DNA of 32,000 bases, taken from assembly GCF_008065095.1 (NCBI RefSeq), contig NZ_CP042911.1:6840001-6872000 (forward strand), read 5' to 3'. Within the stretch, counting starts at the first letter, position 1. The number at the start of each line of letters is the position of its first letter. A model generated the notes under the pieces. The model did no database searches, was not told where the DNA came from, and saw nothing but the letters and a program-made list of their open reading frames with translations. Positions 3,260-32,000 of the stretch are shown here, one piece after another. The DNA comes from Gemmata obscuriglobus (GTDB taxonomy: Bacteria; Planctomycetota; Planctomycetia; Gemmatales; Gemmataceae). A program made the position numbers and the translations under genes.

Positions 3260-3312
3260 ACGACCATCGGGCACGTGTATCAGAGAGGTCCAGCTGGCTG
3301 TGTTTGTTTCTC

Positions 3313-3340: not shown

Positions 3341-3348
3341 CTTCTCGC

Positions 3349-3387: not shown

Positions 3388-3425
3388 CCGGGGCCGACCG
3401 ATGACCGGACGGTTCGCGGAGCGGG

Positions 3426-4877: not shown

Positions 4878-5006
4878 AATCGCATCTCCGGGGCGTAACG
4901 GACCGGGAGTTCCGGCCCGGCGCGCCGCCAGCACCTGAACGCTACCAAACGCTCATCCTCGGCGGGTCACGACTAGCACACGCCGTGCCGCCCCCGCTCT
5001 CGCGCG

Positions 5007-6283: not shown

Positions 6284-6359
6284 GCCAGCGCTCCTCGCGG
6301 CCCCCTGTGACGCCTGCGGCCATGCCGCCGGGTGGGTGTCCCGCTTCACGAACCCGATT

Positions 6360-12074: not shown

Positions 12075-12152
12075 GCCCGCCTCTCGCTGCCACAGATCCG
12101 ATTCGCCACAACACCATGCGCCGCCGGGGGCCGGAACGCGCAACCCGGCCCG

Positions 12153-12743: not shown

Positions 12744-12893
12744 CGGAACCGTCACTCCGGATCGCGGGCCGGTCGGTGCCGACCGCGGGCGGTGCCGGCC
12801 GGCAGAGATTTGTCATTTTTCTATTGCGCGTTTCGGACCGCAGCGACGCCTGTGGGGGTGGCGCATCCCCCCAATACCGTCGGAGTCCGCTCG
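12744..12893. promoter_or_regulatory. Divergent intergenic region between the ECF sigma operon and the giant surface-protein gene
   Basis: It is ~150 bp and contains an A/T-rich patch (gatttgtcatttttctattgcg). GGAG at 12882-12885 lies 8 nt before ATG 12894. No promoter motif could be assigned with confidence. Confidence 0.35.
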
Positions 12894-15800: not shown

Positions 15801-18800
15801 ACGATCTTGACCGACGGCTACACCGGTAACGACCTGTCGGCGTCGAGCGCCAACAACCTGCTGGTGGGGAGCGGGTCGGTGGGCGGGCTGAGCAATGGGG
15901 CGAACGGGAACGTGGTGGTGCCAACTGTGGCCGCCGCGGGCCTGGACCCGGCCGGGCTGAAGGACAACGGGGGGCCGACCCAGACCATCGCCCTGCTGCC
16001 CGACAGCCCAGCCATCGGGGCCGGGCCGTTCGCCGGCGGTGAGACCGTGGACCAGCGGGGGTACGGTCGCCCGGCGGCCGGCAACATCGACCTCGGCGCG
16101 TACCAGACGACCGCCGCCCCGCGGGAGGCCGATTCGCTGGTGGTCACCACCACCGCGGACGCGGTGAACGCGTTCGACGGTGTCACCAGCCTGCGGGAGG
16201 CGGTCGCATACGCCAACGCGCGCGCCGGTGCCGACACGATCACGTTCGCCCCGGGCGTGGCCGGCGGTACCATCGTGCTGACGCGCGGCCAGCTCGCGCT
16301 GAACGACTCGGCGCAGACCATTATTGATGGCGGGGCGGCGGGTGTCACCCTGGATGGCAACAACGCGTCCCGGGTAATCCTGGTGAGTTACGGGGCCACT
16401 GCCGCCCTGAACCACCTGACCATCACTCGCGGCCGCGACGACAATTATGATGGCGGCGGCATCTACAACCAGGGCACGCTGACGGTGTCGGCCAGCACCA
16501 TCGCCAACAACTCGGCCCGCGTCGGTGGTGGCATCTCGAACTATGGCACCCTTACTGTCACGGGAAGCACCGTGGCCAACAACTGGGGCTACCATGGCGG
16601 CGGCATTTTCAACCATGTTTCGGCGACGGTGACGGCGAGCACCATCGCCAACAACTACGCCGATGATTCCGGCGGCGGCATTAGCAACGTCGGCGGCACG
16701 ATCGCGGTGTCGGCTAGCACCATTACCAACAACACGGTCCGGATTGGGGGCGGGGCCGCTGGGGGTAGGGGTATTTACAGTAGCGGCGCCACGACGACCC
16801 TGACGAGTACGATCCTGACCGACGGGTTCGTTGGCTACAATGGCCTGTCGGCGTCCAGCGCGAATAACCTGCTGGTGGGGGGCGGGTCGGTGGGCGGGCT
16901 GAGCAACGGTGCGAACGGGAACGTGGTGGTGCCGACCGTGGCCGCCGCGGGCCTGGACCCGGCCGGGCTGAAGGACAACGGGGGGCCGACCCAGACCATC
17001 GCGCTGCTGCCCGACAGCCCGGCCATCGGGGCCGGTATGGCCGGCGCGGGTGCCACCGACCAGCGGGGGGTGGCGCGGGACACGCGGCCGGACATCGGGG
17101 CCTACGAGTTCGTTGCGTATCGCCCGTCGCTGGTGGTGACCACGCTGGCGGACGAGGACGACGGCACGTCCGACCCGGGTTTCGGTTCGGGCACCAGCCT
17201 GCGGGAGGCGGTGGCGTACGCGAACGCGCACCCGGGTGCGGACACCATCACGTTCGCCCCGGGGGTGGCGGGGGGCACGATCGTGCTGTCGCGCGGGCAG
17301 CTCGCGCTCACGGACGCGGACCAGACCACCATCGACGGCGGTGCGGCGTGGGTGACCCTGGACGGCAACAACGCGTCCCGGGTGATCCTGGTGAGTTACG
17401 GTGCCACTGCCGCCCTGAACCATCTGACCATCACCCGCGGCCGCGCCGACAATTATGATGGCGGCGGCGGCATCTACAACCAGGGCACGCTCACGGTCAC
17501 GGCGAGCACCATCACCAACAACTCGGCCACCGTCGGCGGCGGCATCTCTAGCATCGGTTCGGCGGCGGTGACGGCGAGCACCATCGCCAACAACTCGGCC
17601 GATAATTCCGGCGGCATCTCGAACTACGGCACGCTGACGATGTCGTCCAGTACCGTGGCCAACAACTCGGCCAACTCTTTCGGCGGCGGCATCTCGAACT
17701 ACGGCACGCTGACGATGTCGTCCAGTACCGTGGCCAACAACTCGGCCAACTCTATCGGCGGCGGCATCTACAATCGGGGCACGCTCACGGTGTCGGCGAG
17801 CACCATCGCCAACAACTTGTCCCGTTATATTGGCGGCGGCGGCATTTATAGCCTCGGCAGCATCCTGACGATGTCGGCCAGCACCGTTGCCAACAACTCG
17901 GTCCTTTCTGGCAAAGGCGGCGGCATCTACCTTGATAGCGGCATCCTGACGGTGTCGGCGAGCACGATCGCTAACAACTCGGCCAATTCTGGCGGCGGCA
18001 TCTACCTTGATGGCGGCATCCTGACGGTGTCGGCGAGCACCATCGCTAACAACTCGGCCAGTAACGGCGGCGGCATCTTCAACCAGGGCATGGCGAACCT
18101 GCCGAGAACGACCCTGACGAGCACGATCCTGACCGACGCGTTCGGCGGCGACGACCTGTCCGCGTCCAGCGCGAACAACCTGCTAGTGGGGAGCGGGTCG
18201 GTGGGCGGGCTGAGCGGCGGGTTGAACGGGAACGTGGTGGTGCCGACCGCCGCCGCCGCGGGCCTGGACCCGGCCGGGCTGAGGGACAACGGGGGGCCGA
18301 CCCAGACCATCGCCCTGCTGCCCACCAGCCCGGCCATCGGGGCCGGTGGGGCCGGCACGACGACTACCGACCAGCGGGGGGTGGCGCGGAACGCCAACCC
18401 CGACATCGGGTCGTTCGAGACGCAAGCGTCGACCGTAGGGGTGACCATTGCCGGCGGGGTTTATCGTGGGACGGCTTACACGGTGACGGCCGCGACCGTC
18501 GCCGGCACCAACGGCGCGACCCTCGCCAGCTTCGGCAGCCCGGCGCTGACGTACACCTACTACGCCGGCGCCCTCACCGCGGCCCAGGTCGCGGCAGCAA
18601 CCCCGCTGGCTGACGCCCCAATCAACGTCGGCACCTACACCGTTGTCGCCACCTTCACCAGTGACGCGTTAGGCTACCGGAGCGCGGTCAGCAGCCCGGT
18701 CTCGTTCACCATCACTCCGGCAACGGCCTTTGTGGTCGTGGCCGATTCGGCCTACGAGTACGACGGGCAGGCCCACGGGGCGAGCCTAGTGCAGGCTGTC

Positions 18801-21800
18801 GGCGTCGGCGGGGCCGACCTGAGCGGGTTCGTCTCCCTCAGCACCCTGTTCACCGACGCCCCCGGCGGCACCGCCACCTGGACGTTCGACGCCGGCCCCA
18901 ACTACGTTTCCGCCAGCGGCTCGGTGTCGATCATCATCTCCCCGCGGGGGGGGGCCTGGGTGACCGACGCGGCCGGCAAAACGTATGGCGACGCGGACGC
19001 CGCCTCACTGACCACCGGCGCCGGGAGCGGGTTTGTTGAGGCCGATGGGGTGACGGCCACGTACACCCGGCAGGCCGGGGAGAACGCGGGCAGTTACGCC
19101 ATCACCGCCACGCTGTCCAGCAGCCGGCTGACGGCCGCGCAACTGGCGGCCAACTACTCCATCATCAACACGGGGGCCGTGTACACCATCGGCCGGCGGG
19201 CCGCGTCCGTTTCGGCGGACGCGCTGACGAAAGTCTACGGCGACGCGGATCCCGTTCTGACCGGCACCCTCAGTGGCTTCCTGCCGGGCGACGGTGTGGC
19301 CGCCGCCTACACACGGGCGGCAGGCGAGTCCGTGGCCGGCGGCCCGTACGCCGTCACCGCCACACTCAACCCCTCCGCGGCGCTGGCGAACTACGACGTG
19401 ACCTACACCGCGGGGAGCCTGACCGTTACCCCGCGCGTGCTGACGGTGACCGCGACGGCGTCGGACAAGGTGTACGACGGCACGACTGCGGCGAGCGCCA
19501 CGCTGACCCTGGGGAACACGGTGGCCGGCGAGGTCCCGACGGCCACGTTCACGTCGGCTGTGTTCGGCGACAAGAACGCCGGCACCGGTAAGACGGTGAC
19601 GGTGTCCGGGGTCGCCCTGGACCCGGCGTTCGCCGCCAACTACACGCTGAGCGGGGTAACGACGGCGTCCGCCGTCGCCAGCATCACCGCCAAGGCCATC
19701 AGCGGGACGTTCACCGCGGCCGATAAGGTGTACGACGGCACCCGGGCCGCGACCGTGCTCACGCGGAACCTGGGCGGCGTGATCGGCCAGGACGCGGTGG
19801 CCCTGACCGGCGGCACCGCCGCGTTCGCCGACAAGAACGCGGGTGCGAACAAGTCTGTGTCGCTGACCGGGGCGACCCTGACCGGGGCCGATGCCGCCAA
19901 CTACACCCTGACCGGGGTTGCCGACGCCGCCGCCAGCATCGCCCAGCGGGCGCTGACGGTGGGCGCGACGGCGTCGGACAAGGTGTACGACGGGGGCACC
20001 GCGGCGAGCGCCACGCTGACCCTGGGGAACGCGGTGGCCGGCGAGGCCCCGGCGGCCACGTTCACGTCGGCGGTATTCGCCGACAAGAACGCGGGTGTGG
20101 GCAAGGCGGTGACGGTGTCCGGCATCGCCCTGGACCCGGCGTCCGCGTCCAACTACACGCTGAACGGTGTGACCACGGCGTCGGCCGTCGCGAACATCAC
20201 GGCAAAGGCCATCAGCGGCGCGTTCACCGCGGCCGATAAGGTGTACGACGGCACCCGGGCCGCAAATGTGCTCACGCGGAACCTGGGCGGCGTGATCGGC
20301 CAGGACGCGGTCACCCTGACCGGCGGCACCGCCGCGTTCGCCGACAAGAACGCGGGTGCGAACAAGTCTGTGTCGCTGACCGGGGCGACCCTGACCGGGG
20401 CCGATGCCGCCAACTACACCCTGACCGGGGTTGCCGACGCCGCCGCCAGCATCGCCCAGCGGGCGCTGACGGTGGGCGCGACGGCGTCGGACAAGGTGTA
20501 CGACGGGGGCACCGCGGCGAGCGCCACGCTGACCCTGGGGAACGCGGTGGCCGGCGAGGCCCCGGCGGCCACGTTCACGTCGGCGGTATTCGCCGACAAG
20601 AACGCGGGCGTGGGCAAGGCGGTGACGGTGTCGGGGATCGCGCTGGACCCGGCGTCCGCGGCCAACTACACGCTGGGCGGGGCCACCACGGCGTCGGCCG
20701 TCGCGAACATCACGGCGAAGGCCATCGGCGGCGCGTTCACCGCGGCCGATAAGGTGTACGACGGTGGGGCCGTGGCTACCGTGCTGAGCCGCAGCCTGGG
20801 CGGGGTGATCGGCCAGGACGCGGTCACCCTGACCGGCGGCATCGCGGCGTTCGCCGACAAGAACGCGAGTGCCGGTAAGACGGTCACCCTGACCGGGGCG
20901 ACTCTGACCGGGGCTGACGCCGCCAACTACACCCTAACCGGTGTTGCCGACGCCGCCGCGGCCATCGACCGGCGGGCGCTGACGGTGAGTGCGACGGCGT
21001 CGGACAAGGTGTACGACGGGAGCACCGCGGCGAGCGCCACGCTGACCCTGGGGAACGCGGTGGCGGGCGAGGCCCCGGCGGCCACGTTCACGTCGGCCGC
21101 GTTCGGCGACAAGAACGCCGGCACCGGCAAGGCGGTGACGGTGTCCGGGATCGACTTGGACCCGGCGTCCGCGTCCAACTACACGCTGAACGGTGTGACC
21201 ACGGCGTCGGCCGTCGCGAACATCACGGCAAAGGCCATCAGCGGCGCGTTCACCGCGGCCGACAAGGTGTACGACGGTGGGGCCGCGGCGACCGTGCTCA
21301 CGCGAACACTGGGCGGGGTGATCGGACAGGACGCGGTCACCCTGACCGGCGGCACCGCCGCGTTCGCCGACAAGAACGCGGGTGCGAACAAGTCCGTGTC
21401 GCTGACTGGGGCCGCTCTGACCGGGGCCGACGCCGCGAACTACACCCTGACCGGGGTGGGCGCGACCACCGCTGGCGTGGCCCGGCGGGCGCTGACGATC
21501 ACCGCCACGGGCACGAACAAGGTGTTCGACGGAACCACCGCGGCGGCCGTCACCCTGGCCGACAACCGGGTGGTCGGGGATCAACTCGCCTCGGGCTACA
21601 CGTCGGCCGCGTTCGCCGACCCGAACGTGGGTACTGGTAAGTCGGTGACGGTGACCGGGATCAGTGTGACCGGCGCCGACGCCGGCAACTACACGTTCAA
21701 CACCTCCGCAACGACCACGGCCAGCATCACCCCGGCCGCCGTAACGATCGGGCTGGCCACCGACCGCCCGGTCGCGGTGCCGGGGCTGGCCGTCACGTTC

Positions 21801-22736
21801 ACCGCCACCGTCGCCGCGGCCAACGGCGCTCCGGTGACCGGAACCGTGACGTTCAAGGACGGGAGCACCGTGCTCGGCACCGCTCCGGTGGTGAACGGCA
21901 AGGCGGTACTGACCACCGACGCCTTCCAGTACGGCAACAAGACGATCACCGCGACGTTCGCCGGCGGCGGCAACTACGCGGTCCCGACCGCCACGGCCTC
22001 GGTGGGCGTGTCGGTGGTGCCGGCGGCGATCCTGCCGGACCCGGTAACCGGGCAGAACGCGCTGTTCGTTGGCGGCACCGCAGGCGATGACGAGATCGAG
22101 GTGCTGGGTATGAGCAACAACCGGTACGCGGTGGAGGTCGGAAGCGGGTGCTGGAAGTTGTTCGATCAGACGCTCACCGGGGTGGTCGCCCGGGTGGTGA
22201 TGTACGGCGGGGCCGGCAACGACGCGATCGTGGCGAACGGCAACGTTCGGGTGCCGGTGTTCGCGTTCGGCGGGGCCGGCAACGACATCCTGGTCGGGGC
22301 CGAGAACGCCCCGAACGTGCTGGTCGGCGGGGCCGGCAACGACCTGCTCTACGCCGGCTGCGCACGGGACATCCTGATCGGCGGGGCCGGATCGGACCTG
22401 CTCTTCGGGCGGGCCGGTGACGACATGCTGATCGGCGGCTCGACGGCGTTCGACGCCAACGAGTCGGCCCTGTGGGGCCTCCAGGCGGAGTGGAACTCGT
22501 CCCGGGACCTCGGCACCCGGGTGGCCAACCTGCGCGGCACCGGGACCGGCCCGCGAGCGAACGGTAACGCGTTCCTGGTGGCCGGCGGGCCGGCCGCGAC
22601 CGTGTTCAACGACGGGGCCGGTGACTTCCTGTACGGCAGCAGCGGGCGGGACTGGTACTTCGCCAACACCACCGGCGGCGGGGTGCTGGACGTGATCGCC
22701 GGGCTCCGTGGGGATGACCTGCTGACCGAGTTGTAA
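12894..22736 (+). CDS. Giant (3280 aa) modular secreted/surface protein: N-terminal LEDR motif, 5 beta-helix plus choice-of-anchor-Q-like modules, MBG(YGX) domains, 9 YDG domains, Ig-like domain, RTX Ca-binding repeats
   Basis: ATG 12894 is in frame with track ORF 12294-22736. The upstream 600 nt overlap the sigma gene in antisense and are discarded. Motifs seen: LEALEDRAVPA; repeated GADTITFAPGVAGGTIVLT..LTD..TIDGG..VTLDGN; GGGIYN.GTLTVSASTIANNSA beta-helix rungs; NGGPTQTIALLP.SPA..DQRG..R..DIGAYE; K.YGDADP...GD....TR..GE..G.Y (MBG); KVYDG..A (YDG); and GGAGNDxLx repeated 5 times near the C-terminus. Confidence 0.85.
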   Translation: MPVRSWVRKLFDRTPARPIVRPRSKLAVEALEDRAVPATFAVTSLLDNGSAGTLRWAVDQANGTAGADTITFAPGVAGGTIVLTGGQLALTDSAQTTIDGGATGVTLDGNNASRLVFVSPGASAALNRLTITRGRADNLDGGGIYNSGGTLAVSASTITNNSASFGGGISNFNGTLTVTASTVANNSATVGGGIYNSGSAAVTVSTVAKNYAGSAGGGIHNVGGAIAVSASTIANNAVRIGDGAFGGAGIYNSSGTATLASTILTDGTAGDNLSASSANNLLVGSGSVGGLSNGANGNVVVPTADAAGLDPVGLKDNGGPTLTIALLPTSPAIGAGPFAGGATVDQRGYGRPAAGNIDLGAYQTTAAPREADSLVVTTTADAVNAFDGVTSLREAVEYANARAGADTITFASGVAGGTIVLTGDQLTLTDAAQTTIDGGAAGVTLDGNNASRVLFVGTGASAALNHLTITRGRTLDGAGIYNQGTLTVSASTIANNNASFGGGISNYGTLTVTGSTVANNGSYHGGGIFNRASATVTASTIANNYADDSGGGISNVGGTIAFLSSTITNNAASRVSGGGGGGIYSSGATTTLTSTILTDELVGADLSASSANNLLVGSGSVGGLSSGANGNVVVPTVAAAGLDPAGLKDNGGPTQTIALLPGSPAVGGAATNAGATDQRGVARDARPDIGAYEFTDFRPSLVVTTLADEDDGTSDSRFGSGTSLREAVEYANAHPGADTITFAPGVAGGTIVLTRGQLALTDADQTTIDGGAAGVTLDGNRASLVLFVGTGASATLNHLTITRGWGDGSGGGIHNQGTLTVSASTIAGNRANYGAGGGIYNQGTLTVSASTIAGNWAIHGGGIYNRGTLTVSASAIAGNSAVLYGGVCNDGGVLTVSTSTINNNSADISYGGIYNSGSAAVTASTIANNSARDAGGIYNYGGTLTVSASTITNNAGGIQNSSGTVTLTSTILTDGYTGNDLSASSANNLLVGSGSVGGLSNGANGNVVVPTVAAAGLDPAGLKDNGGPTQTIALLPDSPAIGAGPFAGGETVDQRGYGRPAAGNIDLGAYQTTAAPREADSLVVTTTADAVNAFDGVTSLREAVAYANARAGADTITFAPGVAGGTIVLTRGQLALNDSAQTIIDGGAAGVTLDGNNASRVILVSYGATAALNHLTITRGRDDNYDGGGIYNQGTLTVSASTIANNSARVGGGISNYGTLTVTGSTVANNWGYHGGGIFNHVSATVTASTIANNYADDSGGGISNVGGTIAVSASTITNNTVRIGGGAAGGRGIYSSGATTTLTSTILTDGFVGYNGLSASSANNLLVGGGSVGGLSNGANGNVVVPTVAAAGLDPAGLKDNGGPTQTIALLPDSPAIGAGMAGAGATDQRGVARDTRPDIGAYEFVAYRPSLVVTTLADEDDGTSDPGFGSGTSLREAVAYANAHPGADTITFAPGVAGGTIVLSRGQLALTDADQTTIDGGAAWVTLDGNNASRVILVSYGATAALNHLTITRGRADNYDGGGGIYNQGTLTVTASTITNNSATVGGGISSIGSAAVTASTIANNSADNSGGISNYGTLTMSSSTVANNSANSFGGGISNYGTLTMSSSTVANNSANSIGGGIYNRGTLTVSASTIANNLSRYIGGGGIYSLGSILTMSASTVANNSVLSGKGGGIYLDSGILTVSASTIANNSANSGGGIYLDGGILTVSASTIANNSASNGGGIFNQGMANLPRTTLTSTILTDAFGGDDLSASSANNLLVGSGSVGGLSGGLNGNVVVPTAAAAGLDPAGLRDNGGPTQTIALLPTSPAIGAGGAGTTTTDQRGVARNANPDIGSFETQASTVGVTIAGGVYRGTAYTVTAATVAGTNGATLASFGSPALTYTYYAGALTAAQVAAATPLADAPINVGTYTVVATFTSDALGYRSAVSSPVSFTITPATAFVVVADSAYEYDGQAHGASLVQAVGVGGADLSGFVSLSTLFTDAPGGTATWTFDAGPNYVSASGSVSIIISPRGGAWVTDAAGKTYGDADAASLTTGAGSGFVEADGVTATYTRQAGENAGSYAITATLSSSRLTAAQLAANYSIINTGAVYTIGRRAASVSADALTKVYGDADPVLTGTLSGFLPGDGVAAAYTRAAGESVAGGPYAVTATLNPSAALANYDVTYTAGSLTVTPRVLTVTATASDKVYDGTTAASATLTLGNTVAGEVPTATFTSAVFGDKNAGTGKTVTVSGVALDPAFAANYTLSGVTTASAVASITAKAISGTFTAADKVYDGTRAATVLTRNLGGVIGQDAVALTGGTAAFADKNAGANKSVSLTGATLTGADAANYTLTGVADAAASIAQRALTVGATASDKVYDGGTAASATLTLGNAVAGEAPAATFTSAVFADKNAGVGKAVTVSGIALDPASASNYTLNGVTTASAVANITAKAISGAFTAADKVYDGTRAANVLTRNLGGVIGQDAVTLTGGTAAFADKNAGANKSVSLTGATLTGADAANYTLTGVADAAASIAQRALTVGATASDKVYDGGTAASATLTLGNAVAGEAPAATFTSAVFADKNAGVGKAVTVSGIALDPASAANYTLGGATTASAVANITAKAIGGAFTAADKVYDGGAVATVLSRSLGGVIGQDAVTLTGGIAAFADKNASAGKTVTLTGATLTGADAANYTLTGVADAAAAIDRRALTVSATASDKVYDGSTAASATLTLGNAVAGEAPAATFTSAAFGDKNAGTGKAVTVSGIDLDPASASNYTLNGVTTASAVANITAKAISGAFTAADKVYDGGAAATVLTRTLGGVIGQDAVTLTGGTAAFADKNAGANKSVSLTGAALTGADAANYTLTGVGATTAGVARRALTITATGTNKVFDGTTAAAVTLADNRVVGDQLASGYTSAAFADPNVGTGKSVTVTGISVTGADAGNYTFNTSATTTASITPAAVTIGLATDRPVAVPGLAVTFTATVAAANGAPVTGTVTFKDGSTVLGTAPVVNGKAVLTTDAFQYGNKTITATFAGGGNYAVPTATASVGVSVVPAAILPDPVTGQNALFVGGTAGDDEIEVLGMSNNRYAVEVGSGCWKLFDQTLTGVVARVVMYGGAGNDAIVANGNVRVPVFAFGGAGNDILVGAENAPNVLVGGAGNDLLYAGCARDILIGGAGSDLLFGRAGDDMLIGGSTAFDANESALWGLQAEWNSSRDLGTRVANLRGTGTGPRANGNAFLVAGGPAATVFNDGAGDFLYGSSGRDWYFANTTGGGVLDVIAGLRGDDLLTEL
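13005..18420 (+). repeat. Five ~1.0-1.3 kb coding modules arranged as an alternating ~2.1 kb super-repeat
   Basis: Module starts are at ~13005, 14004, 14985, 16127 and 17121. Junction types alternate between DLGAYQTTAAPREADSLVVTT and DIGAYEF..RPSLVVTT. 13935-14056 is identical to 16058-16179 (122 bp, offset 2123). Confidence 0.8.
14622..14632 (+). repeat. G11 homopolymer inside the giant gene (codes part of SGGGGGG)
   Basis: Read directly: c-ggggggggggg-c-ggggg-c at 14621-14639. A second G9 run lies at 18946-18954. Confidence 0.9.
19434..21485 (+). repeat. Four tandem 513-bp (171-aa, two YDG domains) coding repeats
   Basis: Unit starts are at 19434, 19947, 20460 and 20973, and the next, diverged unit starts at 21486, all spaced exactly 513 bp. 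19801-20095 is identical to 20314-20608 (295 bp, checked base by base). Confidence 0.9.
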
Positions 22737-23189: not shown

Positions 23190-24023
23190 CTACTTCCTCG
23201 GTGACCGGTCGTGTTCGCGCAGTTCGGGCAACCGGTTCATCACCCAAGACAGTAGCGCGCCGTAAGCGCCTTCGTACTCGGCCAGCCGCGCGCCGAAATG
23301 CGCGGCGCGGGCGCCCGCCGCGGCGGTCACGCTCACCGCGCACTCGTCTTCGACGAACCGGAACACCCCCTTCAGATCGCCCGCGGTCTCCGTGGTGCGA
23401 ACGGTCGCGACCCACGACAGATAGCAGCGGTTCGGGTCGAGGCTCTCGAGATCCGGAATCAGCCCGAGGTCGGTCGAAACCTCGAGCAGTTCGCCGTGCT
23501 TGCCGAGGTTGCGCAGCAGCAGCAGCGGATCCATGCCGTCGGTCAGCAGCCGCGGCCCGGGCGTAATTGTCACGCGGTAGACGTGCGCCCCTTGGGGTCC
23601 CGGAGCAACCGCCGGCGGGCGTGCTTCTACCGCGCCCGAACCGCACCCGGCCGCCGTGTTGAGCGCAACAACGAGATCCGCGTCCGCCGAAGCGGGTTCG
23701 CCGGCTCGGGCCGCGGCGAACAGCCCGTGCAGCCCGTCCACCGCGCGCAACAGCAGGTCGATGCGATCGCGCGTGACCGGGAGCTGGCCCTTGCGCAACT
23801 TGTCGAGGAGCTGCTCCAGCGAGTGCGTGAGCCGGGTGATGGCCTCGAAGCCGAACACCCCGCTGCCGCCCTTGATCGAATGAGCCGCACGGAACACCGC
23901 GTTCAGCACCTCGGGGTCCGGGGCGCCGTCGCCGGCGCCCAGGAGCCCGGACTCGAGGGCCGCGAGGTGCTCGCCCGCCTCGTCCAGGAAGGTGTTCAGC
24001 AACTGGTCCATTTCGACTGGCAT
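23190..24023 (-). CDS. Hpt (CheA P1-like) phosphotransfer protein without a kinase core
   Basis: ATG at 24023, 277 aa. The P1 signature is LNAVFRAAHSIKGGSGVFG, with its His codon at 23880-23882. It is followed by HVYRVTITPGPRLLTDGMDPLLLLRNLGKHGEL...LDPNRCYLSW...VFRFVEDEC, a segment I recall seeing after P1 in some full-length CheA proteins. No P3 dimerisation, HATPase or P5 sequence follows. Confidence 0.8.
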   Translation of the reverse strand: MPVEMDQLLNTFLDEAGEHLAALESGLLGAGDGAPDPEVLNAVFRAAHSIKGGSGVFGFEAITRLTHSLEQLLDKLRKGQLPVTRDRIDLLLRAVDGLHGLFAAARAGEPASADADLVVALNTAAGCGSGAVEARPPAVAPGPQGAHVYRVTITPGPRLLTDGMDPLLLLRNLGKHGELLEVSTDLGLIPDLESLDPNRCYLSWVATVRTTETAGDLKGVFRFVEDECAVSVTAAAGARAAHFGARLAEYEGAYGALLSWVMNRLPELREHDRSPRK

Positions 24024-24034
24024 CGGTCCGCTCG

Positions 24035-24400
24035 CTAGGGGAGCAGGTCGGTAACGACCTGGACGAGTTGCGCGGCCTTGAACGGCTTCACGATCCACCC
24101 GGTCGCGCCCGCGGCCTTGCCCTGCTGCTTCATCTCGGTCTGGGACTCGGTGGTGAGCAGGATGATGGGGGTGGACTTTAACTGCGGCCGCGCGCGCGCC
24201 TGCTTGACGAACGTGATCCCGTCCATCACCGGCATGTTGACGTCGCTGATGATGACGTCCACGCGGGCGCCGGCGAGCTTGTCGAGGGCCTCCTGACCGT
24301 TGCAGGCCTCGATCACGGTGAACTTGGCGTCCGACAGGGCCATGGCGACCATTTGGCGGAACGTGAGCGAGTCGTCGACGATGAGAGCGGTTTTCGCCAC
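24035..24400 (-). CDS. cheY: CheY-like single-domain response regulator
   Basis: ALIVDDS, VIISDVNMPVMDG, ILLTT and IVKPF cover all REC acidic-pocket, T and K positions. The track start is TTG 24415. GTG 24400, preceded by GAGGA, is more likely. Confidence 0.85.
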   Translation of the reverse strand: MAKTALIVDDSLTFRQMVAMALSDAKFTVIEACNGQEALDKLAGARVDVIISDVNMPVMDGITFVKQARARPQLKSTPIILLTTESQTEMKQQGKAAGATGWIVKPFKAAQLVQVVTDLLP

Positions 24401-24411
24401 GAGAGTGGTCC

Positions 24412-25392
24412 TCAAAAGAATTCCATGGAACCCGGGGTGTCGTCACCCGCGGGGCCGGCGTCGTGCCCGGTGACGCGGTCCAGAACGCGCCGCTCGGACT
24501 GCATGGTGGCCCGCGCGCGGAGCCGGTCGAGGAGGGCCGCCGCGCCGGCCGCGTCCCCGGACGCGAGCACGGCTCGGGCCTCCCGTAGGGCCGCGGCGAC
24601 GTGGTCCAGTTGCTGGTTCACCGCGTCCTGGAACTGGAGCGCGGTCATCGCGTCCTCGATGTCCCCGGCCAGCCGCTCGGCGTCGGTCGCGGACGCGGCC
24701 ACCAGCGCCTGCATCTCGGCCTGGGACCGGGCGAGCGCGTCCAGCGCGCGGGCGCCCTCTTCGCGGCTGAGGTCGGCGGCCCGGTTCAGGTCGGCCGCGG
24801 TGTCGCTCTTGAGCAGCCCGGCCCGCATCCGCTGGGTGCTCTCGCGCACCTCCTGCCACAGCCCGTCCACCATCCCGCGGATCGACTTGGCCGTGGTGCC
24901 GATCGCTTCCGCCTGGCGCCCGGTCTCGGCGGCGACCACCGCGAACCCGCGCCCGGACTCGCCCGCGCGGGCGGCCTCGATGCGCGCGTTGAGGGCCAGG
25001 ATGCGCAGCGCGTACGAGACCCCGTCCAGGTCGCCGAGCGACCGCTCGATGCGGTCCACGCGGGTCGCGATGCCCTCGAGCCGGCGCAGCGTCTCGACCG
25101 CCTCGTCGGTGGCCCGGCGCACCTGGTCCATGCGGCCGAGCAGCGCCGTGATCGTGGACCGGGCGGCGGCCTGCGCGTCCGCGTCCGTGCCGCCGTCCTG
25201 CCCGGTCGCGCGGGCCGCGCGGGCCGCGCTCTCCTTCGACCGCCGCGCGATGCTCACGAAGCTGGTGCAGACCTGGGTCACCGCCTCTTCGACGTGCCGC
25301 GCCGTGTCCCCGATTTGGGTCGAAAGCGCTTCGAGCACCACCCCGATTTCGGGTGCTCCCGCGACGCCGGAACTGGTGCCTGCCTGAACCAT
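24412..25392 (-). CDS. Short soluble methyl-accepting-type signalling-domain protein (no TM, no HAMP)
   Basis: ATG at 25392 (MVQAGTSS...), 326 aa. The hairpin-tip signature is [26 protein letters not shown]. No hydrophobic segment is present. The track ORF extension to 25710 overlaps the STAS gene and is discarded. Confidence 0.75.
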   Translation of the reverse strand: MVQAGTSSGVAGAPEIGVVLEALSTQIGDTARHVEEAVTQVCTSFVSIARRSKESAARAARATGQDGGTDADAQAAARSTITALLGRMDQVRRATDEAVETLRRLEGIATRVDRIERSLGDLDGVSYALRILALNARIEAARAGESGRGFAVVAAETGRQAEAIGTTAKSIRGMVDGLWQEVRESTQRMRAGLLKSDTAADLNRAADLSREEGARALDALARSQAEMQALVAASATDAERLAGDIEDAMTALQFQDAVNQQLDHVAAALREARAVLASGDAAGAAALLDRLRARATMQSERRVLDRVTGHDAGPAGDDTPGSMEFF

Positions 25393-25421: not shown

Positions 25422-25730
25422 TTACGAATCGAGGACCTCGCCGAGCCCGGCGCGGCGCAGGTGCGCGGCCGCCGCGTCCTGAACGCTTTCCATTGCGAAC
25501 GGTAGCCCGCGATCGCGACACGTGCGCCGTAACGCGATCAAAATCTGCACTGCCCCAGTGGGCAGGAACGGCGCGGCCGCGCAATCGACGGTCGCGCCGC
25601 GGCTCGCACGAACCGCCGCCCGCGCGGCGCTGAGCAGGTCGGCCAGTTCCGCCGGTTCGAGGTTCTCGTTCAGGGCGATGTGTGCGGGCCCGCCGCACCC
25701 GGCTTGGCACTCATCTGTTTTCTTCATCAC
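25422..25730 (-). CDS. STAS-domain (anti-sigma-antagonist-like) protein, first gene of the minus-strand che operon
   Basis: ~101 aa, with GTG at 25730 and ATG at 25727. The layout is LNENLEPAELADLLSAARAA....TVDCAAAPFLPTGAVQILIALRRTCRDRG..FAMESVQDAAAAHLRRAGL, which resembles STAS/SpoIIAA-like proteins. The call rests on pattern similarity only. Confidence 0.55.
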   Translation of the reverse strand: MMKKTDECQAGCGGPAHIALNENLEPAELADLLSAARAAVRASRGATVDCAAAPFLPTGAVQILIALRRTCRDRGLPFAMESVQDAAAAHLRRAGLGEVLDS

Positions 25731-26133
25731 GTCACCACGACCGGCCGGCGCGAGTCAGTTACGTTGACATCAAAACTGATAGCACCGTTGTGGGTCCCGG
25801 AGCGTGGGTGCAGAAATTAATTATGGACATAAACGGCAAGTTTTGTTGTGAGCACGTTTTTCATGCGGCTGTAACACGTTTCGCTGAGGCAAAACATGAA
25901 AAGTGCACAATTATTGACAATTTGAGAATAAGTTATCAATTTACCCTTCACCTCAAATTGCCAGGAAGTTTGGCGTTCTAGCTATTTCACATTAGCCGCA
26001 GCCAATTTCGCGGGCGGAAGAGCCACCAGCCGGACAAGCGACGGGGCGGCGCCAGCCCCACTTGCCCGGCCCTTTGTCAACCGCAACGGCCGCAACTGGC
26101 GCGGGTGGAGTTCTTCTCTCACCGGAGACGCAC
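25731..26133. promoter_or_regulatory. A/T-rich divergent control region between the two che operons
   Basis: G+C drops markedly across ~25760-26000. TTGACA hexamers lie at 25764 and 25914 without good -10 partners. GGAGA at 26123-26127 lies 6 nt upstream of ATG 26134. Confidence 0.4.
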
Positions 26134-28086
26134 ATGGCCCGACTCGCTCCCCAGCCCGGCTCGTCGAACAACGGTCACGTCAACGGCCACGCCAGCGGTC
26201 ACAACCGGTTCGCCGAGCCGGACGCCCTGCGCCAGCGCGAGAGCGCCCGCGACCGCGCCAAGGAGAAGGCCAGCGCCCGCACCGCGGCCAAGCGCCAGCA
26301 GGCGGCCGAGCGGATCGCCACCGCCACCGAGCAGCTCACCGGGGGCGTGACCGAGGCCAACGCCGCGGTCGCGCAGCTCGAGCGGCAGATGGAGCAGATC
26401 GCCAGCGGGGCGGTCGAGTCCTCGAAGGCGGCCGAGAGCAGCCTCGCGGCCATTGAGGAAATCAACGCGGCCAGCACCCAGGCGGTCGCCGCCGCACAAC
26501 AGTCGTTGCGGAAGGTGACGAACATCCAGGAACTGGTCCGGGGCGCCAGCGGCGACATCGACCTGCTGATCCAAGGGGTCGGCGCGTCCGCGCAGGCCAA
26601 CATGGAGTCGGCGAAGCTGGTCGGGCAGCTCGAGCAGCAGAGCAACGAGATCGGAACGATCGTGGAAGCGGTGGTGCGGATCGCCGACCAGACCAACCTG
26701 CTGGCGCTGAACGCGGCCATCGAGGCGGCCCGCGCCGGGCAGCACGGTAAGGGGTTCGCCGTGGTCGCCGACGAGGTCCGCAACCTCGCCGAGACGAGCG
26801 AGCGGTCGGCCCGCAACATCCGCGACCTGGTGGAGAAGATCCAGACCGACGTGAAGCTGGTGGTGGCGGACGTGGAGAAGGCCGGCAAGGCCGCGTCGGA
26901 CGAGGTGGAGAAGGCCAAGAAGGTGACCGCCGACCTGAAGCGCGTCGCGACCGACACCGCCGAAATCCAGAAGGCGTGCGCCTCCATCAATGACGCCGCG
27001 AAGGAAGCGGCCACCGGGGCCGAGCAGTTCCAGCAGGGCGCGCAGGCCGTGGCCAGCGCCTCGGAAGAGTCCAGCGCGGCGGCCGAGGAGGCCAGCAAGG
27101 CGGTGCGCGAGCAGGGCAAGGCGCTGGAGGAGATGGGCAAGGGCGCGGACGAGCTGAGCACCATGGCCGAGGACCTGAAGACCTCGACCAACTCGGAGAA
27201 GTCGTCCGAGGAACTGGCCGCCGCCTCCGAGGAGCTGTCGGCCACCATCCAAGAGGCGAACGCGGCCGCGACCCAGATCACGGCCGCGATCACACAGATC
27301 GCCAAGGGCGCCCAGACCCAGGCCGCGGCCACGACGCAGTCGAGCACCGCGGCGAAGCAGATCGAGGCCGCGGCCCGCGCGATGCAGCACAAGGCCACCG
27401 ACTCGGTGGAGCGGGCCGACACGCTCATGAACTTGCTCACAGAAAACAAGGCCGGCGTCGAGGCCATGATCCGCGGGATCAACCACGCCGCCGAGGCGTC
27501 GATCAAGTCGGCCACCAACATCAAGGCGCTCGAGGAGCGCACCCGGATGATCGACAAGATCGTGGACGCGATCGTCAACGTCACCATCCAGACCAACCTG
27601 CTGGCGGTGAACGGCGGGATCGAGGCCGCGCGGGCCGGCGAGTACGGGCGCGGGTTCGCGGTGGTCGCGGCCGACGTCCGCAACCTGGCGGGCGAGTCCA
27701 GCGAGAACGCCGACAAGATCAAGGACCTGGTGCGCAACATCCAGAAGCAGATCGTCACCGTGGCCAGCGACATTGAGGCGTCCGGAAAGGAGGCGGCGGC
27801 CGAGGTGCTCAAGGCGAAGAAGACGACCGCCGACCTGGAGCGCATCTCCACCGACTTCGACGAAGTGCGGCGCGGGGTGATCGAGGTGAAGACCGGGCAG
27901 GACCAGGCGCTCCTGGCCATCCAGACGGCGGCCGCGGCGGTGCAGCAGATCGCGCGGGCCGCGCAGGAGGCGAGCGAGGTGTCCATACAGGCGGCGGCCG
28001 CGGCGCAGCAGGGCGCGAAGGGGATGCACGAGCTGGCGGCCGCGGTCGAGGAGATCTCGGCCCTGGCGGACGAGCTGCAGAACTAA
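26134..28086 (+). CDS. Soluble chemoreceptor with two complete MCP signalling (MA) domains (DosM-like)
   Basis: ATG 26134 follows GGAGA; 650 aa. There are two hairpin tips, [32 protein letters not shown] (tip codons from 26719) and [32 protein letters not shown] (from 27619), exactly 900 nt apart. The whole protein is Ala/Glu/Gln-rich coiled coil with no hydrophobic segment. Confidence 0.85.
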
Positions 28087-28110: not shown

Positions 28111-29970
28111 ATGTCGGACAACACTCCCGCCGGCGCCGGGGGCGGCGGCGACCACGAGCTGGTCACCTGCGTGCTGGGCGGGGTCGAGTTCGGGATCGAC
28201 ATCAACGCGGTGCAGGAGATCGTGCGGCTGCCCAAGATCACGCCGGTGCCCCGCGCGCCGAGTTACGTCGAGGGCGTCGCGAACCTCCGCGGCAACGTGC
28301 TCCCCATCGTGAACTCGCGCGCCCGGTTCGGGATGCCCGGGGCCGGGAACGGGGACAGCAACCGCGTCGTGGTGGTCGAGCTGAACGGGGCCCCCACGGG
28401 GCTGATCGTGGACGCGGTCCGCGAGGTCATGCGGGTCAAGCGGGCGGACGTGGAAGACGCGCCGGCCGCGGTGCAGAGCGTGGACGGCCGGTTCCTCCGC
28501 GGCGTCGTCAAGCTGAACGGCGGGCAGCGGCTCGTCCTGCTGCTGGACCACAGCGCGATCATGGAGGCGGCCCGGCCCGCGGGGCGGCCGGGCGCCGCCG
28601 GGCCGACGCCCGGCGGCGACCCGGCCGCGTCCGGGGCCGCGCTCCGTGCCGCCCCCCCGACCCCGGAGCACGAGCACCTGGTCACGTTCCGCATCGGCGA
28701 GGAGGAGTACGGCGTCCCGATCATGGACGTGCAGGAGATCATCCGCGTCCCGAACATCAGCACGATCCCGAACGCCCCGGCCGGGGTGGTCGGGATCGCC
28801 AGCCTGCGGAACCGCATCCTCCCGGTGCTCGACCTGCGCACCAAGTTCGAGTTCCGCCCGCGGAAAGCGGAACTCGAGGAGTTCTGCGACAAGGTGCGGG
28901 CCTTCGAGCGGCTCTACACCGCGGCCGTCGAGCGGCTCCAGGCCGCGGTCGCGGGCCGCGGCGCGTTCGACCGCGCGCTGCTCCGCGGGCACCGCGACTT
29001 CTGCCGCTGGCAGGCCGGGTTCGCGAGCGGCGACCGGCTGCTGCACGCGCTCCTGGCCCCCCTCCGCGACGCGTTCGACGCGGGCGCGGCCGGGAAGCGG
29101 GCCGTCGCGGCCCACCTCGACGCCCGGAACTTCGCCGCGGCCCAACAGGAGTTCGACGGCCCGTTCCAGGTCGCGCACGCCCGGCTGCTGGCCGCGTTCG
29201 AGAAGCTGTACACCGGGGTCACCAGGCGGGACGACGAGCGGTGCCTCGTGGCCACCGTGAACGGCGCGGCCCTCGCCCTGCGGGTGGACGCGGTGAACCA
29301 AGTGCTTCAGGCGCCACGCGGCACGATCGAGCCGACGCCGGCGCTCGTGGCGGGGCGCGAGCAGCTCCGCGGGATCGCCAAGCTGGACGGCGGCAAGCGG
29401 CTCATCATGCTGCTCGCCGCGGACAAACTCGTTTCCCACGCGGAGCTGAGCGCCGTGACCAACCTGACCGACCGCAGCGAGGGCGCGGGCCGCGGGCCGG
29501 GCGCCGGGGGCGAGTCCGACGAGCGGCAGCTGGTGACGTTCAAGGTCGCCGGCGAGGAGTTCGCGGTGGACATCATGCAGGTGCAGGAGATCATCCGGCT
29601 GGGCAAGGTGACCAAGGTGCCGCACCTCCCCGATTTCGTCGAGGGGGTGGTGAACCTGCGCGGGCAGGTGCTGCCCGTCATCGACCTGCGGCGCCGGGTG
29701 CACCTGGCCCGCAAGGACTACTCGGACGCGACCCGCGTGGTCGTCGTGGACCTGCGGGGCACGAAGACCGGGATCATCGTGGACGCGGTGTCCGAGGTGA
29801 TGCGGGTCCGCGGCCGGGACATCGAGCCGGCCCCGCCCATCATCCGCAGCCGGTACGGGGATCACATCATCGAGGGCGTCGGCAAGCTCAACAAGGGGGA
29901 CCGGATGTTCCTGCTGTTGCGCGCCGACGAGTTGCTCAAGGTCGAGAGCGTGCCGGCCGCGTCGGCGTAA
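28111..29970 (+). CDS. cheW: Triple-CheW-domain scaffold protein, with the second CheW domain split by a ~125-aa helical insert
   Basis: AAGGAG lies 7 nt upstream of ATG 28111. Three CheW signatures are present: LVTCVLGGVEFGIDINAVQEIVRLPKITPVPRAP..VEGVANLRGNVLPIV; LVTFRIGEEEYGVPIMDVQEIIRVPNISTIPNAP..VGIASLRNRILPVLDL; and LVTFKVAGEEFAVDIMQVQEIIRLGKVTKVPHLP..VEGVVNLRGQVLPVIDL. Domain 2 resumes (CLVATVNGAALALRVDAVNQV) only after the insert at ~28855-29235. Confidence 0.85.
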   Translation: MSDNTPAGAGGGGDHELVTCVLGGVEFGIDINAVQEIVRLPKITPVPRAPSYVEGVANLRGNVLPIVNSRARFGMPGAGNGDSNRVVVVELNGAPTGLIVDAVREVMRVKRADVEDAPAAVQSVDGRFLRGVVKLNGGQRLVLLLDHSAIMEAARPAGRPGAAGPTPGGDPAASGAALRAAPPTPEHEHLVTFRIGEEEYGVPIMDVQEIIRVPNISTIPNAPAGVVGIASLRNRILPVLDLRTKFEFRPRKAELEEFCDKVRAFERLYTAAVERLQAAVAGRGAFDRALLRGHRDFCRWQAGFASGDRLLHALLAPLRDAFDAGAAGKRAVAAHLDARNFAAAQQEFDGPFQVAHARLLAAFEKLYTGVTRRDDERCLVATVNGAALALRVDAVNQVLQAPRGTIEPTPALVAGREQLRGIAKLDGGKRLIMLLAADKLVSHAELSAVTNLTDRSEGAGRGPGAGGESDERQLVTFKVAGEEFAVDIMQVQEIIRLGKVTKVPHLPDFVEGVVNLRGQVLPVIDLRRRVHLARKDYSDATRVVVVDLRGTKTGIIVDAVSEVMRVRGRDIEPAPPIIRSRYGDHIIEGVGKLNKGDRMFLLLRADELLKVESVPAASA

Positions 29971-30027: not shown

Positions 30028-31128
30028 ATGCCACTGCCCCGCGCGACTCGCCCGATCCGCGTCGTCCTGGCGGACGACTCCGCGCTCATGCGCAAGAAGC
30101 TCCGCGAGATCCTCGAGTCCGACCCGGCTCTTGAAGTGGTCGCCAGCGCGCGCGACGGCGCCGCCGCGGTCGACGCGGTGCGCGCGTTCGATCCGGACGT
30201 GGTCACGCTCGACATCAACATGCCGGTCATGGACGGCGTGACCGCGCTCCAGACGATCATGAACGAGCTCCCGCGCCCGGTGCTCATGATCAGCTCGCTG
30301 ACGCAAGAGGGGGCGCTGGCGACCTACGAGTGCCTCGAGCTGGGCGCGGTGGACGTCGTGCCCAAACTCGGGGGGACCATTTCCGCAGAAATCGAGCGCC
30401 AGAGCCGCGAGATCATCGCGAAGGTAAAGGCCGCCGCCGGCGCGCGGGTGCGGCGGTCCGGGGCGAAGCGGCTCGCCCCCCAACCCCCGCCCCCGAAGCC
30501 CGCCCCCGCCCCGCCCGCGCGCGCCGGGGGGGCCGGGGCGCACGCGGATCGGGTCGTCGCCATCGGCGTCTCGACCGGCGGACCGAAGACGCTCCAGGAG
30601 GTGGTGCCGCTGCTCCCGCCGGACCTGCCCGCGGCGGTGGTGATCGTCCAGCACATGCCCGAGACGTTCACCGCGTCGTTCGCCCGGAGCCTCGGCCGCA
30701 ACAGCCAGATGCCGGTGAAGGAGGCCGAGGCCGGTGACACCCTCCGGAACGGCCACGTCTACGTGGCCCGCGGCGGGAAGCACCTGATCTTCGCCGACCG
30801 GCGGCCGGCGAACGGGGTGATGGTGCGGTACGTCAGCCAGCCGGCGGACGCGCTACACATCCCTTCGGTGGACGTGATGATGCACTCGGCGGTCGACGTG
30901 TTCCGCTCGCAGGTCGTCGGCGTCCTGCTCACCGGGATGGGGAGCGACGGGGCCGACGGGATGGTGGCGATCCGCCGCGCGGGGGGCGAGACCATTGCCG
31001 AGGACGAGAGCACCTGTGTCGTGTTCGGGATGCCGGCCGTGGCGGCCGCGAAGGGGGGCGCGGCCCACGTGCTGCCGTGCCACGAGGTGGCCGCGAAAGT
31101 CGTGTCGTTGTTGCGCCGCAGCCGCTGA
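30028..31128 (+). CDS. cheB: Chemotaxis response regulator protein-glutamate methylesterase
   Basis: The REC domain has VVLADDS and VVTLDINMPVMDG. A Pro-rich linker follows. The methylesterase catalytic motifs are GVSTGGP, VQHMP and GMGSDG. Confidence 0.9.
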   Translation: MPLPRATRPIRVVLADDSALMRKKLREILESDPALEVVASARDGAAAVDAVRAFDPDVVTLDINMPVMDGVTALQTIMNELPRPVLMISSLTQEGALATYECLELGAVDVVPKLGGTISAEIERQSREIIAKVKAAAGARVRRSGAKRLAPQPPPPKPAPAPPARAGGAGAHADRVVAIGVSTGGPKTLQEVVPLLPPDLPAAVVIVQHMPETFTASFARSLGRNSQMPVKEAEAGDTLRNGHVYVARGGKHLIFADRRPANGVMVRYVSQPADALHIPSVDVMMHSAVDVFRSQVVGVLLTGMGSDGADGMVAIRRAGGETIAEDESTCVVFGMPAVAAAKGGAAHVLPCHEVAAKVVSLLRRSR

Positions 31129-31140: not shown

Positions 31141-32000
31141 ATGGACCTTCCGCCGGAAGAGTTCGCCCTGATCCGCGACCTGATCTACGCCCGCACCGGG
31201 CTGATGTTCGAGGACAAAAAGCGCTTGTTCCTGGCGCCCCGCGTGTCGCGCCGGGTGCGGGCCGCCCGGTGCAGCGGCCCGCGCGACTACTACCACCTGC
31301 TCCGGTACAGCGACCCCGACGGGCGCGAGTTCCAGGAGCTGGTGGACGAGGTGACCACCAACGAGACGTACTTCTTCCGCGACTACCCGCAGCTCGAGTT
31401 CTTCGCCAACGAGGTGCTGCCGCGGGTCGCGGACGCCAAGCGCGCCGCCCGCGACCACAGCCTGAACGTCTGGAGCGCGTGCTGCTCGACCGGCGACGAG
31501 CCGTACACGCTGGCCATCATTCTGGCCGCGTGCCTGGACGACTTCTCCCGGTGGGATGTCAAACTGGTGGGCACCGACATCGACACCAAGGTGCTCGCGA
31601 CCGCCCGCGCCGCGGTGTACGGCGAGCGGAACGTGAAGGACGTGGACCCGTCCTACCTCGGCAGGTACTTCGTCCCGACGCGCGGCGGGTACCGGGTCGC
31701 GGACCCGATCCGCCGGATGGTCGCGTTCGAGCGGGTGAACCTCGTGGACGACGACCGCATGAGCCGGCAGCGCGGGTTCGATTTTATCTTCTGCCGGAAC
31801 GCGCTCATTTACTTCGACGACGCCTCCCGGAAGCGGGTGCTGGCGTCGTTCCACGACGCCCTGCGGCCGGGCGGGTTCGTGTTCCTCGGCCACTCGGAAT
31901 CGGTGGGCCGGATCTCGCGGGCGTTCGAGCCGGTGCAGTTCGGCCCCGGCGGGGTGGCGTACCGCAAGCCCGGCGGGCACCGGCTCGCGGCGGCCCCCAC
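31141..32000 (+). CDS. cheR: Chemotaxis protein methyltransferase CheR (3' end beyond the window)
   Basis: This ORF is not in the supplied track because it has no stop in the window. My own translation from ATG 31141 reads MDLPPEEFALIRDLIYARTGLMFEDKKRLFL...TTNETYFFRD...NVWSACCSTGDEPYTLAI...FIFCRNALIYFD...GGFVFLGHSES. The frame is open to the last base. Confidence 0.85.
   Translation, partial: MDLPPEEFALIRDLIYARTGLMFEDKKRLFLAPRVSRRVRAARCSGPRDYYHLLRYSDPDGREFQELVDEVTTNETYFFRDYPQLEFFANEVLPRVADAKRAARDHSLNVWSACCSTGDEPYTLAIILAACLDDFSRWDVKLVGTDIDTKVLATARAAVYGERNVKDVDPSYLGRYFVPTRGGYRVADPIRRMVAFERVNLVDDDRMSRQRGFDFIFCRNALIYFDDASRKRVLASFHDALRPGGFVFLGHSESVGRISRAFEPVQFGPGGVAYRKPGGHRLAAAP

Follow-up and report, generated by a model that had tools for sequence, protein, structure and literature searches.

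The window analysed here, a stretch of 32,000 nucleotides from contig NZ_CP042911.1 of the planctomycete Gemmata obscuriglobus (positions 6,840,001 to 6,872,000), carries towards its end a dosM-like gene. Its product was confirmed to be a soluble chemoreceptor that combines two complete signalling hairpins on one polypeptide chain. An earlier note, made from the letters of the DNA, had described it as a receptor with two full signalling domains of the methyl-accepting chemotaxis proteins (MCP) on a single soluble chain, with tip motifs exactly 300 codons apart and arms of about 150 residues beside them, and this description was upheld. The gene is contained in the open reading frame 26062..28086 on the + strand; with the ATG at 26134 as start it yields 650 residues, the same length as in the NCBI gene call on record ABGO01000098.1 (ABGO00000000 being G. 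obscuriglobus DSM 5831, PMC3906078). The first residue, M1, is an invariant column in the alignment of homologues. The GC content of the frame amounts to 0.94 at the third and 0.48 at the second codon position (GC3 and GC2), and the high GC3, in surrounding DNA of about 70% GC, marks the frame as a real gene; it is present, too, in assemblies and sequencing runs that are independent of one another. The parts of the gene and of its product, in part taken from an AlphaFold2 (AF2) monomer model with its per-residue confidence (pLDDT), are as follows.

26134..28086 including the stop codon, + strand: dosM-like gene for a soluble receptor of 650 residues with two tandem MCP signalling modules (open reading frame, Pfam, NCBI gene call)
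26134..26217, + strand: residues 1-28, variable and probably disordered N-terminus (AF2 pLDDT below 50 for residues 1-27)
26218..26277, + strand: residues 29-48, basic helical extension before module 1, candidate splint over the rod centre (AF2, conservation)
26278..27183, + strand: module 1, residues 49-350, with an N-arm of 22 heptads, tip 1 at Q203 and a C-arm (MCPsignal 130.9 bits)
26719..26793, + strand: tip 1 motif, residues 196-220 (regular-expression match at residue 196)
27178..27210, + strand: central junction, residues 349-359, K-x-S-T-x3-K-S-x-E, with helix break and heptad shift (DSSP, conservation)
27193..28083, + strand: module 2, residues 354-650, with an N-arm, tip 2 at E503 and a C-arm of 21 heptads running to the C-terminus (MCPsignal 106.9 bits)
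27619..27693, + strand: tip 2 motif, residues 496-520 (regular-expression match at residue 496)

Two signalling modules on one chain

The Pfam profile MCPsignal matched the whole protein with 223.4 bits in two stretches. With the gathering score of 34.6 bits taken as the cut-off for each half, residues 1-340 scanned alone reached 130.9 bits (E 5.7e-38) and residues 341-650 reached 106.9 bits (E 1.3e-30), so that both halves pass on their own; a half below this threshold had been named in the earlier note as one of two results that would speak against two hairpins. When the halves are aligned with each other, they share 37% identity over 306 residues (E 8e-45). The repeat lies far outside what chance would give and indicates that a complete signalling domain was duplicated long ago, not that the assembly is at fault. 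A transmembrane segment was not found in the protein (maximum Kyte-Doolittle 19-residue mean 1.17), no other Pfam domain exceeded its curated cut-off in the 650 residues, and a scan with NCBIfam returned only fragments of MCP equivalogs, far below their cut-offs. As judged from its sequence, the protein is one without sensor domain and without membrane anchor. Beyond residue 29 the chain is free of proline.

The tip residue of each hairpin we take to be the one directly after ARAG, namely Q203 and E503, by analogy with E391 of E. coli Tsr. On this assignment the chain is divided into a first arm of 154 residues (49-202), a stretch of 299 residues between the tips (204-502) and a last arm of 147 residues (504-650). 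Expressed in heptads, the first arm of module 1 corresponds to 22 and the last arm of module 2 to 21; for the length class of the modules, N-arms of 154 residues (22 heptads) and C-arms of 145-147 residues (about 21 heptads) were obtained, and gapped alignments with PDB chains were kept out of the C-arm counts because the placement of gaps is unreliable in coiled coils of low similarity. By these counts the two signalling modules would be 44H-like, joined head to tail. VC1403, the DosM of Vibrio cholerae, is classed 44H in Table S1 of PMC7534058, and the receptors of the F9 class of chemosensory systems are likewise 44H in the literature. The first and the last helix together make 301 residues, against 299 in the middle stretch, and this equality is exactly what a rod with three helices per chain requires. 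The heptad phase stays at about 1.8 throughout module 1 and at about 2.8 throughout module 2, with a jump of one residue at 345-360. Such a shift is expected, because 300 mod 7 equals 6; it coincides with the helix break in the AF2 model and with the conserved junction motif.

Conservation among homologues and the predicted fold

A protein search gave 7479 matches at E ≤ 1e-10, the best 120 of which were analysed. All 120 are full-length (95-100% coverage, 51-67% identity, mostly 635-680 residues), and they come from Clostridia and other Bacillota, Acidobacteriota, Desulfobacterota and metagenomic bins. Both tip motifs are present in 118 of the 120 homologues, and the spacing is exactly 300 in 118 of these 118; in 113 of them, tip 2 stands at a distance of 155 from the C-terminus. 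The stretch from the N-terminus to tip 1 ranges from 180 to 415 among homologues, the rest of the chain being fixed in length. Along these lines, an alignment of 41 sequences (the window protein and 40 homologues, from several phyla) contains not a single gap over residues 49-650, that is over 602 residues, and this absence of insertions and deletions is what a distance-setting strut predicts. A scan of contigs with the generic tip peptides GFAVVADE and IADQTNLLA returned five double-domain loci out of 80, among the matches listed, with neither V. cholerae nor the source genome in that listing, and tblastn against a plasmid collection gave nothing at E ≤ 1e-40.

Columns conserved in at least 90% of the 120 sequences number 117 in module 1 and 104 in module 2. 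Averaged over blocks of 10 residues, column conservation amounts to 0.96-1.00 in the region of tip 1 (179-218) and to 0.91-0.96 in that of tip 2 (469-518), where the core EAARAG-x2-G-x-GF is retained in 118 of the 120 homologues. Module 2 is thus nearly as constrained as module 1, i.e. not decaying. In the 120 sequences, anchored without gaps, both modules reach a conservation of 90% or more at 62 positions; 42 of these hold the same residue and 20 a different one. Fixed differences of this kind are G174/D474, L189/M489, L192/V492, A194/G494, A209/S509, E214/D514, E220/N520, S225/N525 and R227/D527, so that G494, S509, D514 and N520 are module-specific residues in or near tip 2. Some of the differing positions would correspond to the trimer-contact residues I377, L380 and E402 of Tsr, which serves as a lead and not as a test.

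Beyond the modules, the extension before module 1 is conserved as well: R35, A38, A42 and K45 are kept in 113-119 of 120 sequences. Residues 29-48 maintain a core pattern like that of a and d positions and carry a mean net charge of +2.2, in contrast to the acidic C-terminal end with -5.6 over its last 20 residues. At the junction, conservation reaches 90% or more for K349, S351, T352, K356, S357 and E359. Sites of the methylation consensus lie at residues 62, 307, 362 and 369, and the full consensus is found in 25, 34, 6 and 37 of 41 sequences, respectively; the EE/EQ pair itself is largely conserved at all four sites, even where the flanking consensus is not. Taken together with cheB and cheR in the same operon, the conserved pairs suggest that DosM is adapted by methylation.

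The AF2 monomer model, built on the alignment of 41 sequences, has a mean pLDDT of 86.9 and is helical over residues 29-350 and 354-649, the helix beginning at residue 29. DSSP assigns a single helix break, at 351-353, where the pLDDT falls to 76 (residues 351-360), and further dips occur at both tips. A single long hairpin with a degenerate internal repeat, the other outcome held up in the earlier note as contrary to two tips, is not what this pattern of dips and break describes. Part of the model superposes on the hairpin of Thermotoga maritima TM1143 (2CH7_A; TMt 0.80, root-mean-square deviation (rmsd) 3.3 Å over 298 columns). Taken separately, module 1 finds its best solved match in the same protein (TM1143/2CH7, 82.8 bits, query 13-296, 284 residues), while module 2 matches E. 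coli Tsr best (1QU7, 69.1 bits), slightly better than TM1143.

Gene neighbourhood and the CheW3 partner

The dosM-like gene is followed on the same strand by genes for a triple-CheW protein, a methylesterase and a methyltransferase, and faces a divergent operon on its 5' side.

28111..29970, + strand: cheW3, 619 residues, three CheW domains, the middle one split (Pfam CheW 344.6 bits)
30028..31128, + strand: cheB, response-regulator receiver and methylesterase (CheB_methylest 211.5 bits, Response_reg 70.4 bits)
31141..32000, + strand: cheR, running past the window end (Pfam CheR 199 bits; 287 residues in the source genome)
25422..25727, - strand: STAS-domain protein, 101 residues, first gene of the divergent operon (STAS_2 30 bits, STAS 22.9 bits, gene call)
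24412..25392, - strand: sensor-less soluble single-hairpin MCP, 326 residues (MCPsignal 63.2 bits, gene call)
24035..24400, - strand: cheY-like single-domain response regulator, 121 residues (Response_reg 97.7 bits, gene call)
23190..24023, - strand: orphan Hpt (CheA-P1-like) protein, 277 residues (Pfam Hpt 73.6 bits)

Just beyond the window, the source genome encodes a CheA of 795 residues with the canonical domains Hpt, H-kinase_dim, HATPase_c and CheW. In the MCP of 326 residues the signalling domain is divergent, the tip stands near residue 146 and the chain closes with ...GSMEFF; this protein is a candidate for the role of partner receptor in a DosM array. The protein of 277 residues shares 36% identity with the P1 region of the CheA encoded in the cluster, and its C-terminal part of about 170 residues gave no Pfam match. 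Encoded beside cheY despite the complete CheA of the cluster, it may form an extra phosphotransfer branch or act as a phosphate sink.

A multi-CheW gene lies directly 3' of the dosM-like gene in all 11 loci compared, i.e. in the window and in the loci labelled L006-L010, L086 and L088-L091, and, except in the truncated contig L010, cheB comes next, adjacent to it or, where a cheD intervenes (L086 and L089), one gene further on. The earlier note had asked whether homologues always occur together with such a gene; in these 11 loci they do, and the pairing is an already published signature of the F9 class. STAS genes recur in F9 clusters (in the window, in L088 at 16362-16661, in L086 at 18879-19193, in L090 at 12623-13922 and in L091 at 12600-13785). 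In the Bacillota loci L090 and L091, a stressosome-like STAS set stands between cheB and the Hpt/kinase genes; each set combines STAS proteins of the RsbR-like and RsbS-like types with an RsbT-like HATPase_c_2 kinase, and L090 has a SpoIIE phosphatase in addition. The presence of such sets in F9 clusters suggests a partner-switching input or output.

In CheW3 the CheW domains occupy residues 17-153, 190-253 with about 385-455, and 473-610, and the pieces scored separately reached 132, 102 (in two stretches) and 133 bits. The middle domain is interrupted by an insert, helical and about 130 residues long (window 28870-29270), which is shared by L086, by Paludibaculum (L088) and by a metagenome-assembled genome of Acidobacteriota (L006). 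The insert of L086 contains the complete zinc-site motif of CZB domains, HDQW-x22-CEFGRW-x21-HRKLH, along with a weak Pfam CZB match. In the insert of Gemmata, all four positions of the zinc ligands are substituted (by Y, R, F and A), and a Pfam scan of this insert alone, at E ≤ 10, returned no family, CZB included. The Gemmata insert appears to be a degenerate CZB-like module, its link to CZB running only through its relative L086. It may be added that the entry 'W4' for Paludibaculum in the S6 Table of PMC9321776 may reflect a split middle CheW domain that was counted twice.

The rest of the window holds several features apart from chemotaxis. A giant repetitive open reading frame of about 3300 residues (3109 in the record's gene call) extends over 12813-22736 on the + strand, with right-handed beta-helix repeats, two MBG and nine YDG domains, an RTX nonapeptide match, and tandem repeats of 75-78 nucleotides at 13338-13476, 15321-15534 and 17462-18090; its product looks like a large secreted or surface adhesin. 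On the - strand, 8835-12143 and 12153-12755 comprise a gene for an extracytoplasmic function (ECF) sigma factor followed by that for a Ser/Thr kinase of 1102 residues with TPR repeats, and an analogous pair, with WD40 repeats in the kinase, is found 5' of dosM in L086 (156-4097). At 46-2700 (- strand) a fusion of 884 residues joins a Na+/H+ exchanger to TrkA_N, CBS and PTS EIIA-2 domains, an unusual regulatory tail on a cation/proton antiporter, and a second antiporter paralogue is encoded at 5007-6323 (- strand). The GC content is 0.63-0.68 at window positions 2000-8000 and 0.69-0.73 elsewhere. For the open reading frame 6360-7073 (- strand) no family match was found, and 7528-8658 (+ strand) encodes a WD40/beta-propeller protein.

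Readings of the chain and comparison with known systems

The signature of the F9 class is DosM (MCPsignal:MCPsignal, 44H) together with the triple-CheW protein CheW3, and the architectures of the F9 components are described as unique (PMC9321776). At 100% coverage, the window protein shares 52-53% identity with WP_194448395.1 of Paludibaculum fermentans and WP_062408673.1 of Paenibacillus naphthalenovorans, both listed as DosM in the S6 Table of PMC9321776, and with cheW3 next door the DosM-like identity suggested in the earlier note is supported. The gene order dosM-cheW3-cheB-cheR-cheA corresponds to the [DosMW3BRA..] variant of the S6 Table and fits the published F9 order MWB...RYA. By architecture, gene context and sequence homology, membership in the DosM/F9 family is established. 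That such proteins are rare, as the earlier note had it, was not borne out, since the architecture is a catalogued one: F9 clusters, 64 of them full and 8 partial, were reported for 72 of 2781 representative genomes, and sensory domains are absent from 98% of DosM homologues (PMC9321776). The 72 species of this published list include no Planctomycetes. The Gemmata protein is an already described kind of receptor, in a phylum absent from the published F9 survey.

For V. cholerae, cryo-electron tomography revealed DosM to be an extended rod bearing one signalling domain at each end, which integrates in both CheA/CheW3 baseplates, in every other trimer of dimers, and which is essential for the array (PMC7534058); it is required for the double-layered array (also PMC9321776). 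The physiological output of F9 arrays is not known even in V. cholerae (PMC7534058). We consider it likely that an F9-class cytoplasmic chemosensory system of G. obscuriglobus has its dosM orthologue in the gene described here and that the product would be, by homology, a strut between two baseplates, this bridging function being inferred from the V. cholerae tomography (PMC7534058). By analogy with that system, the protein would assemble as a parallel homodimer, a four-helix rod whose two ends each present a signalling tip; every tip would insert into a baseplate of CheW3 and CheA, and the strut would fix the distance and the register of two opposed receptor layers. Sensing would then take place via other soluble receptors in mixed trimers, for which the adjacent MCP of 326 residues is a candidate, and DosM itself would be a substrate of the operon's CheB and CheR in methylation-dependent adaptation. 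In the extended rod, the N-terminal extension 29-48 would splint the central break.

Several observations weigh against this picture, and some of them would suit a chain that reverses at 351-353, so that the two hairpins lie side by side with both tips at the same end. One polypeptide would then make up a complete four-helix bundle, a hard-wired asymmetric 'dimer' that serves a single baseplate and bridges nothing. The central helix of the AF2 model is indeed broken at 351-353, exactly at the module boundary and with a dip in pLDDT, the heptad register is shifted there by one residue, and the conserved residues of the S/T-rich junction resemble a helix cap. The arm arithmetic fits (154/147 and 149/147 residues), and 20 module-specific fixed differences would be appropriate for an obligate asymmetric pair. 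Full-length Foldseek alignments of the AF2 monomer gave rmsd values of 109-124 Å, which are hard to square with a straight rod and suggest a bend or a fold-back in the monomer model; values above 100 Å are a rough indication and were not relied on. In addition, a straight coiled coil of 299 residues would measure about 44 nm, compared with a published spacing of 35 nm between the V. cholerae baseplates, and the gene order of V. cholerae, [DosM W3 B. R Y A. Y M], differs from the [DosM W3 B R A] of Gemmata, which is without cheY between cheR and cheA and without a HEAT gene, and whose cheY, MCP and STAS genes lie in a divergent operon [STAS M Y Hpt]. A reversed chain nevertheless appears improbable. 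When AF2 models a single chain of an obligate coiled-coil dimer, the result tends to be too compact. The core-like pattern of residues 29-48 would be left without a packing partner in such a bundle, and the lack of any junction indel in the 40 aligned homologues indicates a rigid element rather than a loop. The basic residues 29-48 and the acidic C-terminus come to lie side by side in the extended rod only, which argues against a chain that turns back, as does the DosM of V. cholerae, an extended rod reaching both baseplates (PMC7534058) in a double-layered array that depends on it (PMC9321776).

If the protein were an ordinary soluble receptor whose domain has been duplicated, with one functional tip and the other module turned into a degenerating spacer or an adaptation region, this would agree with the lower MCPsignal score of module 2 (106.9 versus 130.9 bits) and with its departure from the canonical tip at several fixed positions, e.g. 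NAA to NG[GS]. Against this stand the 104 highly conserved columns of module 2 compared with 117 in module 1 and the tip 2 core kept in 118 of 120 homologues, and since the module differences are fixed across phyla they speak for selection, not decay; a decaying second domain was rejected on these grounds, and one functional tip is a decidedly remote prospect. Least plausible of all, with practically no chance of being correct, is a faulty assembly, or an MCP gene duplicated in tandem recently and in this strain alone, in favour of which one can cite the internal repeat itself and nothing else; it is refuted by halves that are merely 37% identical, by the independent assemblies and by more than 100 homologues from several phyla whose architecture and spacing are identical.

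Building on the two-baseplate strut, a further reading can be put forward tentatively, though it is rather doubtful: that the strut is polar, with non-equivalent baseplates, and that the scaffold protein CheW3 carries an insert derived from a sensor (CZB). The roughly 20 tip differences fixed across phyla, several of them near the hairpin, would make the rod polar and the layers of the array perhaps not identical, and a module 1 like TM1143 next to a more Tsr-like module 2 may point the same way. The CZB module that CheW3 would carry in the Gemmata / Acidobacteriota lineage, intact in L086 and degenerate in Gemmata, hints at signal input via the baseplate instead of a receptor. If the strut were polar, the two baseplates or sets of mixed trimers would be non-equivalent and might recruit different partners, and the central break with its register shift, splinted by residues 29-48, would set the relative rotation of the layers. 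No new kind of biology is involved, as the architecture, the CheW3 partner and the scaffold role have already been described. F9 arrays are, however, the least understood major chemosensory architecture, and the Gemmata locus adds a planctomycete example outside the survey of 72 species; the constraints on DosM (spacing of 300, no indels, conserved junction, non-equivalent tips) provide testable limits for models of double-layered arrays.

Compared with known systems, the closest counterpart is the V. cholerae DosM (VC1403), the F9 / cluster I double signalling-domain receptor and the one member to be characterized, likened to the Gemmata protein by its published description and not by sequence. 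It too consists of two tandem MCP signalling domains with neither sensor nor transmembrane segment, and its gene also lies directly 5' of the triple-CheW gene and cheB, with cheR and cheA belonging to the same cluster. The differences, besides those of gene order, are the degenerate CZB-like insert in the CheW3 of Gemmata and the host, a planctomycete and not a gamma-proteobacterium. The homologues of Paludibaculum and Paenibacillus, both known from bioinformatics only, share the tip spacing of 300 residues, and their genes are likewise followed by those for CheW3 and CheB. The CheW protein of Paludibaculum (627 residues) resembles the Gemmata CheW3 in the insert in its middle CheW domain, whereas the Paludibaculum cluster differs in that HEAT, an extra CheY and STAS are placed between cheB and cheA on the same strand.

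As for the insert, proteins of CheW-CZB architecture make up 1.4% of CZB proteins and are most abundant in Clostridia (Perkins et al. 2021, PMC8262984). Similar to them is the CheW3 of L086, the nearest relative, with the CZB motif inside the middle CheW domain; the Gemmata CheW3 differs from them, its zinc ligands being substituted and its insert having no Pfam CZB match. A connection between CheW-CZB proteins and the CheW3 of F9 systems was not found stated in the F9 and CZB literature cited here. Finally, each Gemmata module forms a hairpin roughly as long as the cytoplasmic domain of T. maritima TM1143 (PDB 2CH7), a 44H single hairpin. TM1143, which in its full-length form is anchored in the membrane and has a sensor domain, presents a single tip, whereas DosM consists of two fused hairpins with no input domain. 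In the same way, canonical soluble MCPs with a single hairpin, such as T. maritima TM14 or the adjacent MCP of 326 residues, present one tip, while the Gemmata DosM presents two, Q203 and E503.

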